From positions 1-64,000 of IMG/VR virus record IMGVR_UViG_3300025534_000182: a stretch of 64,000 bases of DNA. One strand, written 5' to 3'. The DNA comes from a virus. Each line of letters begins with the position of its first letter. Position 1 is the first letter of the stretch. The translations under genes were made by a program, and so were the position numbers. The notes under the pieces are model-generated. The model was not told the DNA's origin, did no database searches, and worked only from the letters and a program-made list of their open reading frames with translations. Positions 39,985 to 40,030 of the stretch are shown here, piece after piece.

Positions 39985-40030
39985 TGCGCTGTCTTACTCA
40001 TGTCTAAAGACACGAGTGTGCGACAGCGCA
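39985..40030 (-). ncRNA. two-stem structured element, copy 1 (outer stem tgcgctgtc/gacagcgca, inner stem actcgtg/catgagt)
   Basis: The second copy at 48199..48250 has a different outer stem that is still paired (compensatory changes), while the inner stem and loop are conserved. Confidence 0.4.

Follow-up and report, generated by a model that had tools for sequence, protein, structure and literature searches.

Two sites on the minus strand of the window (the whole 64-kb stretch of phage DNA analysed here) share a core of 29 nt, GCACACTCGTG-N8-CATGAGTAAG, which lies at 39993..40021 in copy 1 and at 48206..48234 in copy 2. With up to three mismatches allowed, the core was found at exactly these two sites in 64 kb and in none of 100 dinucleotide-preserving shuffles, and both sites are as the first-pass annotation of this DNA had described them. 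In each copy TTGAT and then AAA stand 12 nt to the 5' side of the core, and the GAT of this pentamer is read as Asp in the frame of a small phage ORF. [quoted passage not shown]

40004..40264, minus strand: host ORF of 86 aa, ending ...FDKCAVAHSCL*; its last nine codons (KCAVAHSCL*) are translated from the LE
40034..40038, minus strand: TTGAT target or transposon-adjacent motif (TAM) abutting copy 1, read directly; GAT is Asp77, the last host codon of ORF 40004..40264
39985..40033, minus strand: LE, 49 nt, drawn from the folds, the outer-stem covariation and the TAM/guide covariation
40031..40033, minus strand: LE leader AAA
39985..40030, minus strand: copy 1 sequence, TGCGCTGTC-GCAC-ACTCGTGTC-TTTA-GACATGAGT-AA-GACAGCGCA
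40022..40030, minus strand: outer-stem 5' arm
40017..40021, minus strand: guide loop GCAC(A)
39996..40017, minus strand: inner hairpin, with G.T at 40013/40000 and loop TTTA
39994..39995, minus strand: AA
39985..39993, minus strand: outer-stem 3' arm
39891..39984, minus strand: RE, 94 nt with three stem-loops, drawn from alignment to the REs of tnpB-bearing elements
39918..39921, minus strand: RE guide GAAT
39899..39917, minus strand: RE hairpin, with a degenerate, shortened loop and one A.A mismatch
39891..39895, minus strand: end motif TTCAA
39891..40033, minus strand: the whole predicted ORF-less mini-element (PATE) of 143 bp, LE plus RE, inserted in the phage ORF without target duplication

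Copy 2 and its surroundings comprise:

48223..48375, minus strand: host ORF of 50 aa, ending ...IDKAFAAHS*; its last seven codons (KAFAAHS*) are translated from the LE
48247..48251, minus strand: TTGAT target motif directly next to copy 2, its GAT being the final codon of host origin in ORF 48223..48375
48189..48246, minus strand: predicted solo LE fragment, matching the LE of locus L002
48200..48241, minus strand: copy 2 sequence, ATTCGCC-GCAC-ACTCGTGA-ATTTAG-TCATGAGT-AA-GGCGAAT
48242..48246, minus strand: leader AAAGC
48235..48241, minus strand: outer-stem 5' arm
48230..48234, minus strand: guide loop GCAC(A)
48209..48230, minus strand: inner hairpin
48207..48208, minus strand: AA
48200..48206, minus strand: outer-stem 3' arm, followed by ACATATGTTAA

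The range 48199..48250 given earlier for copy 2 points to the right site, but it also takes in the leader and part of TTGAT, the stem element itself being 48200..48241.

Folding of both copies, proposed earlier as a check, gave the same architecture in each, namely an outer stem, an internal loop and an inner hairpin, and the inner stem with its G-U pair formed as predicted both in RNA and in single-stranded DNA (ssDNA). The predicted RNA fold has a free energy of -29.1 kcal/mol (z = -6.2) in copy 1 and of -19.8 kcal/mol (z = -5.2) in copy 2, while the ssDNA folds have -16.2 and -10.0 kcal/mol, respectively. The minus strand of both copies is more stable than the plus strand, because the G.U (or G.T) pair turns into A.C on the latter. 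Both copies thus show a subterminal imperfect palindrome that folds on one (top) strand, as do the LEs of IS200/IS605 elements. The outer stems are wholly unlike in sequence, 9 bp long in copy 1 and 7 bp in copy 2, and both are fully paired, as had been noticed before.

A search of relatives for the core, exact or slightly degenerate, yielded 64 other loci, 40 of them viral (IMG/VR) and 24 in Firmicutes genomes that include Caloramator, Sporolactobacillus, Eubacterium, Lachnospiraceae and Tissierellaceae. The exact core is present at 19 of the IMG/VR loci and at the 24 Firmicutes loci, and degenerate patterns added more. Among 54 distinct contexts, the pentamer 11-14 nt to the 5' side of the core is TTGAT in 46, ATGAT in five and another T-rich sequence in three, so that 51 of the 54 carry TTGAT or ATGAT there, while the sequence farther upstream is unrelated among loci. 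A target motif that abuts the end and is not duplicated is again what is seen at IS200/IS605 LEs. What follows downstream on the same strand was classed for 67 copies (the two in the window and 65 from the 64 other loci):

Group I intron and tnpB: 20/67 copies
Group I intron, tnpA and tnpB: 3/67 copies
tnpA and tnpB, no intron: 7/67 copies
tnpB only: 11/67 copies
Intron only: 7/67 copies, at loci with incomplete downstream sequence
No detected ORF: 19/67 copies, many of them at loci with incomplete downstream sequence

In Pfam the small ORF of these elements is Y1_Tnp and the large one carries HTH_OrfB_IS605, OrfB_IS605 and Cas12f1-like_TNB. Given the spacing between core and TTGAT and the linkage to IS605 genes and introns, the core is therefore the LE of IS200/IS605 elements of the ISDra2/CdISt1 type. 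At four loci (L001, L008, L024 and L064) a protein of 445-460 aa, whose ORF starts about 24-370 nt to the 3' side of the LE core, stands in place of the normal tnpB. It has no Pfam match at E<=0.001 and shows RuvC-like motifs (AVDLGLNN, VIVFE, HCDLNA), and it may be a divergent TnpB/Cas12-like nuclease.

The 94 nt that adjoin copy 1 align over their full length with the REs of tnpB-bearing elements having the same LE. The alignment begins just past the tnpB stop codon and finishes at the exact terminus, CGTGGGAGGTTCA-A. Three helices are conserved in it, with 13 compensated pairs, and the three stem-loops of copy 1 correspond to the portion of the omega-RNA scaffold downstream of the tnpB stop. 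The RE hairpin, which is the last of these helices, has GAAT before it and AGGTTCAA after it, and its design is that of the LE hairpin, with a GAC-TTTA-GTC apex and a G.T pair in mid-stem. TTGAT does not recur in the right flank of copy 1 (AAAATAAC), and there is no target-site duplication. The earlier remark that copy 1 is contiguous with an IS right end is therefore borne out, LE and matching RE making up one bounded element of 143 bp. A PATE is defined by cognate LE and RE hairpins around a short ORF-less segment; judged by sequence, copy 1 is such an element, whereas copy 2 is not. Similar short elements with LE and RE were found at loci L056 (175 bp), L040 (229 bp) and L019 (258 bp). The RE of copy 1 lies within a weak full-length match to Ref70 ('Enterococcus sRNA 70') at 39879..39984 on the minus strand, well below threshold, and that sRNA family may itself be derived from an IS605 right end or omega-RNA.

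Over the 53 nt of 48241..48189, copy 2 matches the LE of L002, a full element with tnpA and tnpB, at 98% identity. Beyond 48189 no homology was seen, and neither pattern search nor blastn found an RE for it in the window. Copy 2 is thus best described as a solo LE fragment.

Taken together, the constant position of the core relative to TTGAT, the linkage to tnpA, tnpB and intron on the same strand and the matching RE led us to conclude, with a probability of about 0.9, that both copies are LEs of TTGAT-targeting IS200/IS605-family transposons, of the lineage that includes ISDra2/IS8301 and group A IStrons such as CdISt1. They are an ordinary feature of well-known mobile DNA rather than a novel RNA module or class. 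Of the roles suggested earlier (a mobile RNA module, a processing site or an RNA-binding-protein site), mobility is retained in the form of a mobile element, and none of the RNA roles holds for it as an independent module.

Comparison with described systems agrees with this assignment. ISDra2 inserts 3' of TTGAT, and the first 39 nt of its LE carry the structure bound by TnpA, as ssDNA only (PMC2806898). Like ISDra2/IS8301 of Deinococcus radiodurans, the window copies have TTGAT directly 5' of the LE with no target duplication, a subterminal hairpin in the first 40-50 nt of the LE and a separate RE hairpin, as well as Y1 tnpA and tnpB, here in their relatives. Unlike it, they carry no genes and their hairpin sequence (ACTCGTGNC-TTTA-GNCATGAGT) differs. 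In the copies compared here the hairpin is enclosed by a covarying outer stem of 6-9 bp. Insertion after TTGAT and a TCAG end are features of group A IStrons (CdISt1 and relatives), whose LE palindrome is part of P1 (PMC4227781); for the C. difficile IStrons a TTGAT TAM and ORF-less PATEs with IStron ends have been described (bioRxiv 10.1101/2023.11.20.567912). The window copies share with the group A IStrons (CdISt1/CdiIStron; Tourasse 2014, Zedaveinyte 2023) the TTGAT target, the LE palindrome and an RE architecture ending in TTCA(G), and many of the relatives collected here are such IStrons, but the window copies have no group I intron core, no internal guide sequence (IGS) and no terminal G, copy 1 ending in TTCAA. 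As a PATE, copy 1 is typical in being an ORF-less LE plus RE of 143 bp that keeps omega-RNA-like RE stems; it departs from PATEs in the degenerate loop of its RE hairpin, and copy 2 does so in having the LE only. In IS608 of Helicobacter pylori, the structural model for LE and RE hairpins with DNA guides, too, a guide of 4-5 nt at the 5' foot of the hairpin pairs with the cleavage motif, and IS608 shares with the window element a right-end motif of the TCAA type and the right-end guide GAAT, although the IS608 target is TTAC rather than TTGAT and its hairpin sequence and spacing differ. A literal search for the core in papers returned only chance matches to one 10-mer.

The outer stem was assessed in an ungapped alignment of 45 distinct copies, with 500 shuffles and slid controls. 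Each of the six variable pairs occurs as four to five standard pair types, and 87% of the cells are paired; the unpaired ones belong mostly to one sub-family with tandem G.A/A.G (GTGAAC/GTGARC). There were 145 double-change cells as opposed to 53.6 +/- 7 in the shuffles, and the covariation score was 0.379 against 0.120, with none of the 500 shuffles as high in either measure; the slid controls gave 0.03-0.11, and a mis-registered structure used as a negative control gave no covariation signal. The compensatory changes that had been read as a sign of a functional structure thus hold far beyond the two original copies, and the loss of pairing in further copies, which would have spoken against that reading, was not seen. 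Since the search patterns prescribed the inner stem and the GCAC/TAAG loop, the lack of variation in both within the TTGAT class is an outcome of the way in which the copies were gathered. Among the 20 copies lacking an intron, the outer stem is 88.6% paired, with a score of 0.80 against 0.21 (0/500 shuffles as high). As the signal is equal in copies with no intron, the stem is not only an extension of intron P1. The set of about 45 distinct LEs is a compact comparative one in which both the covariation of target and guide and the outer LE stem stand out clearly, and it could serve TnpA/TnpB engineering.

DNA guides of IS200/IS605 elements are known to covary with the TAM/TEM (PMC10055086). 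A search with the apical 20 nt of the hairpin alone returned LEs with other targets, and also REs, and the target and the bases 5' of the hairpin were tallied for 59 LE-type contexts in five target classes:

Target TTGAT: GCACA 5' of the hairpin
Target TTGAA: GCACT, GCATT or ACATT
Target TTGAC: GCATG
Target TTTAT: GAACA in 6/10; also GAATA, TAACA, TAAGA and TTCAT
Target TTTAC: GAACG

Position 3 of the target is Watson-Crick to loop position 2 in 58 of these contexts, and position 5 of the target to loop position 5 in 57. The guide therefore changes together with its target motif, as in IS200/IS605 LEs, and GCAC(A) at 40021..40017 and 48234..48230 is the LE guide.

By analogy with ISDra2 and IS608, from which the chemistry of TnpA binding, cleavage and LE-RE joining is taken, one may propose the following scenario. 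When the top strand becomes single-stranded, as at a replication fork, the LE would fold into its hairpin and be bound by the Y1 (HUH) transposase TnpA; that such hairpins act as ssDNA bound by this enzyme is established for the family, and we extend it to the window copies by analogy. GCACA just 5' of the hairpin would serve as the DNA guide by base-pairing with the flanking TTGAT, and TnpA would cleave immediately 3' of TTGAT and join the LE to the RE, giving circular ssDNA. The RE would contribute its own hairpin, its own guide (GAAT/GAAC) and the end motif TTCAA. Excision of the 143-bp element would leave the donor joint ...AAATTTGAT|AAAATAACATT, and the RE of the PATE might act as omega-RNA for the phage TnpB (52476..53558), directing it to TTGAT followed by AAAATAACATTTTCAT.

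The tnpA and tnpB genes that lie between LE and RE in relatives are missing from both window copies, neither of which has an ORF there, so these are non-autonomous derivatives and not complete IS elements. No cognate tnpA was found in the window. The only tnpA present (53563..53968) encodes a protein with 39-44% identity to the TnpAs of this LE type, which are 70-76% identical among themselves, and it belongs to a different sub-lineage with different hairpins of the CCCC...GGGG type. Therefore, unless some cognate TnpA acts on them in trans, the two copies are most likely stranded relics that can no longer move.

Many of the relatives are IStrons, and in these the element is also the beginning of an intron. 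At locus L009 a group I intron match in Rfam (77 bits) starts at the first base of the core, with the inner hairpin falling on the first hairpin of model RF00028; three further loci have group I intron matches in Rfam. An IscB-type omega-RNA, considered for the conserved stretch of about 110 nt behind the hairpin in some loci, was rejected, as Rfam identifies that stretch as a group I intron. The IGS, (T/A)AGT(C/T)AG, can pair with UUGAU at the end of the exon, forming U.G at the splice site, and it lies within 40 nt on the 3' side of the core in every intron-bearing copy except L065; elsewhere it was found only at two truncated loci, L012 and L062, which have too little sequence downstream for classification. 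Intron-bearing elements end in ...GGTTCAG and intron-less ones in ...GGTTCAA or ...GGTTCAC, the exception being L015, which has tnpB only and ends in G. This division of TTCAG and TTCAA/TTCAC ends by intron presence agrees with PMC4227781. When the flanks were joined at TTGAT| and TTCAG|, the reading frame stayed open for 126 to >200 codons at eight loci (L005, L010, L011, L033, L044, L047, L054 and L065), that at L011 restoring a very large tail protein. This restoration of the frame at independent IStron loci fixes the boundaries of the element to the nucleotide. These IStrons interrupt phage structural genes, such as those for tape-measure or tail lysin proteins. The LE of a Clostridioides phage IStron reads TTGAT|TAAAAAATAGCTAC-GCAC-ACTTGTGAC-TTTA-GTCGTGAGT-TA-GTAGCTA, then AAATAGTCAGC; it has the same architecture, and its core departs from that of the window at three positions, with wobble pairs replacing Watson-Crick pairs of the inner stem at two of them.

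The presence of the same sequence at the 5' end of a group I intron in 30 relatives, where Rfam aligns it to the first hairpin of RF00028, brings up the idea that the hairpin is mainly an RNA element with a secondary DNA role, either an extension of intron P1 (as a relic or still functional) or a transcript structure that controls translation, stability or omega-RNA processing. On one hand, pairing is kept via U.G in several copies (C-G to U.G in six, U-A to U.G in five), the Clostridioides phage copy has three consecutive wobble pairs, most copies are co-oriented behind a host ORF and are thus likely transcribed, and the outer stem seems to compete with target-guide pairing. On the other hand, ssDNA hairpins tolerate G.T wobbles too, and the RE hairpin also has them; the loop bases covary with the DNA target motif, which is a signature of DNA recognition; and the outer stem covaries equally strongly in intron-less elements. 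In the window, moreover, neither the scan at the gathering threshold nor the one at E<=10 around copy 1 gave an RF00028 match for a group I intron core (P3-P9), the core motifs of such introns are absent downstream of both copies, and the IGS follows neither of them, unlike in group A IStrons. With no intron core, IGS or terminal G, the window copies cannot splice, and they truncate their host ORFs. We consider a mainly RNA-based role improbable.

A variant that we rate somewhat higher, yet still as unlikely, is that the outer stem serves this IS605 lineage as a regulatory switch not described before. Such a conformation, of DNA or RNA, would gate excision by competing with target-guide pairing or would act on read-through host transcripts. 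The outer stem encloses the guide loop and occupies most of the 12-nt linker between TTGAT and guide, and once formed it would keep TTGAT about 7-9 bp away from the guide loop. It is also kept in intron-less elements, whereas in IStrons the stem prolongs P1 of the group I intron at its distal end, an intron that the window copies do not have. The DNA and RNA folds involve the same strand, and computation cannot separate selection on one from selection on the other. If such a switch exists, the outer stem would do more than passively lengthen the TnpA hairpin or survive as a remnant of intron P1.

The assignment to IS200/IS605 left ends was also weighed against other types of repeat. A stable hairpin near the 3' ends of genes could as such be an extragenic palindrome of the REP/RAYT type, an intrinsic terminator or an uncatalogued small RNA gene. 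No U-tract follows the stems (copy 1 continues with AAATGAAC, copy 2 with ACATATG), so neither is an intrinsic terminator, which had been recognised earlier. There are just two copies in 64 kb. The Rfam scan proposed before, run on the whole window, matched no family at either copy at the gathering threshold, nor anything relevant at E<=10 around copy 1, the sole overlapping matches being sub-threshold ones to GEBRO (10.8 bits) and, over the RE part, to Ref70 (16.6 bits). The systematic link to IS605 genes, target motif and RE speaks against repeats of these kinds as well, and we regard them as very improbable.

The host ORFs account for a further similarity between the copies. Both LEs have AAA at their start, where TAA is more usual, and because of this the two ORFs read into the LE and stop inside the hairpin; the in-frame read-through after GAT therefore gives them the common ...DK..AHS tail. 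It is true, as stated before, that both ORFs overlap the copies and end in this way, but the tail is a by-product of read-through and not a conserved protein. In 25 of the 54 distinct contexts the host ORF stops before the core (typically GAT|TAA), in 15 it enters the core, in two different frames (...AHS* or ...PHTRDFSHE*), and in 14 there is no upstream ORF. A shared C-terminus (...DK..AHS) of two paralogous small phage proteins, a possibility already raised in the first-pass annotation, has next to no probability as the source of the similarity: the two ORFs do end in similar residues, but they are unlike upstream of the Asp codon and belong to no Pfam family, the DNA identity extends past both stop codons, and the core is untranslated in 39 of the 54 contexts and read in two different frames in the rest. 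The 86-aa and 50-aa ORFs are thus chimeric, their last nine and seven codons, respectively, coming from a transposon end. The finding matters mainly for annotation, as it explains two odd ORF tails.

A search of 5.8 billion proteins with the 86-aa ORF returned the ORF itself and one homolog, P0002 from Paenibacillus, with 50% identity. It aligns to residues 2-77, stopping exactly at the Asp codon of TTGAT, which also speaks against a shared C-terminus, and it runs on for 16 residues. If the 143 bp were taken out precisely, codon 77 would be followed in frame by another 31 codons, KITFSLEDESKK...*, and the same 5.8-billion-protein search gave no uninterrupted homolog with this tail. A megablast of 39100..41000 against phage records and a tblastn of the reconstructed 108-aa host protein against phages and IMG/VR gave no match, and neither did an exact search of metagenomes for the empty site (TTGAT joined to the right flank). 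Loci with homologs of the neighbouring exonuclease are absent from IMG/VR; in metagenomes there are 18 such loci, at 34-47% identity, none of which has a homolog of the host ORF. As neither an empty-site allele nor an uninterrupted homolog was found for either host gene, the insertion boundaries in this phage rest on analogy.

The phage carries at least three types of IS200/IS605 ends, that is, the TTGAT-type relics described above, an ISDra2-like element with tnpA and tnpB, and an IS608-like one with tnpB and accompanying solo hairpins:

52376..54075, minus strand: complete IS605-type element, with Y1 tnpA at 53563..53968 and tnpB at 52476..53558
30518..31842, minus strand: tnpB-only element with IS608-like ends, tnpB at 30667..31713 (OrfB_IS605 and TNB domains)
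6682..6739 and 42093..42150, minus strand: two mini-elements of about 55 nt, each with an IS608-like LE leader, a single hairpin and an RE tail

The complete element has the LE hairpin CCCCTGCGTTTACTCATGGGG after ATGAT and the RE hairpin CCCCTGCCTTTAGGCATGGGG, with the end AGTGTCAA. In the tnpB-only element the LE is TTTAC|AATCACACACCACCAGAAAG-CCCCTGCCTTTAGGCATGGG and the RE ...CCCCCGCCTTTAGGTATGGGGGAGTGTCAA. The mini-elements have the leader TTTAC or ATTAC ... CCAGAAAG and the RE tail AGTGTCAA; over 49 nt the one at 6682..6739 has the same sequence as the LE at 31794..31842, and both have the look of 'solo hairpins' left by a deletion between the LE hairpin and that of the RE.

Two other features of the window were recorded. 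A Pistol self-cleaving ribozyme (RF02679) at 62758..62830 on the minus strand matches the full-length model with 67.8 bits, the gathering threshold being 34.5, and lies directly 3' of ORF 62830..63489. At 23870..25691, also on the minus strand, there are two adjacent paralogous ORFs of 261 and 268 aa with DNA segments that are 70-84% identical (repeat families D1, D3 and D6), and a third related stretch lies at 19948..20047.
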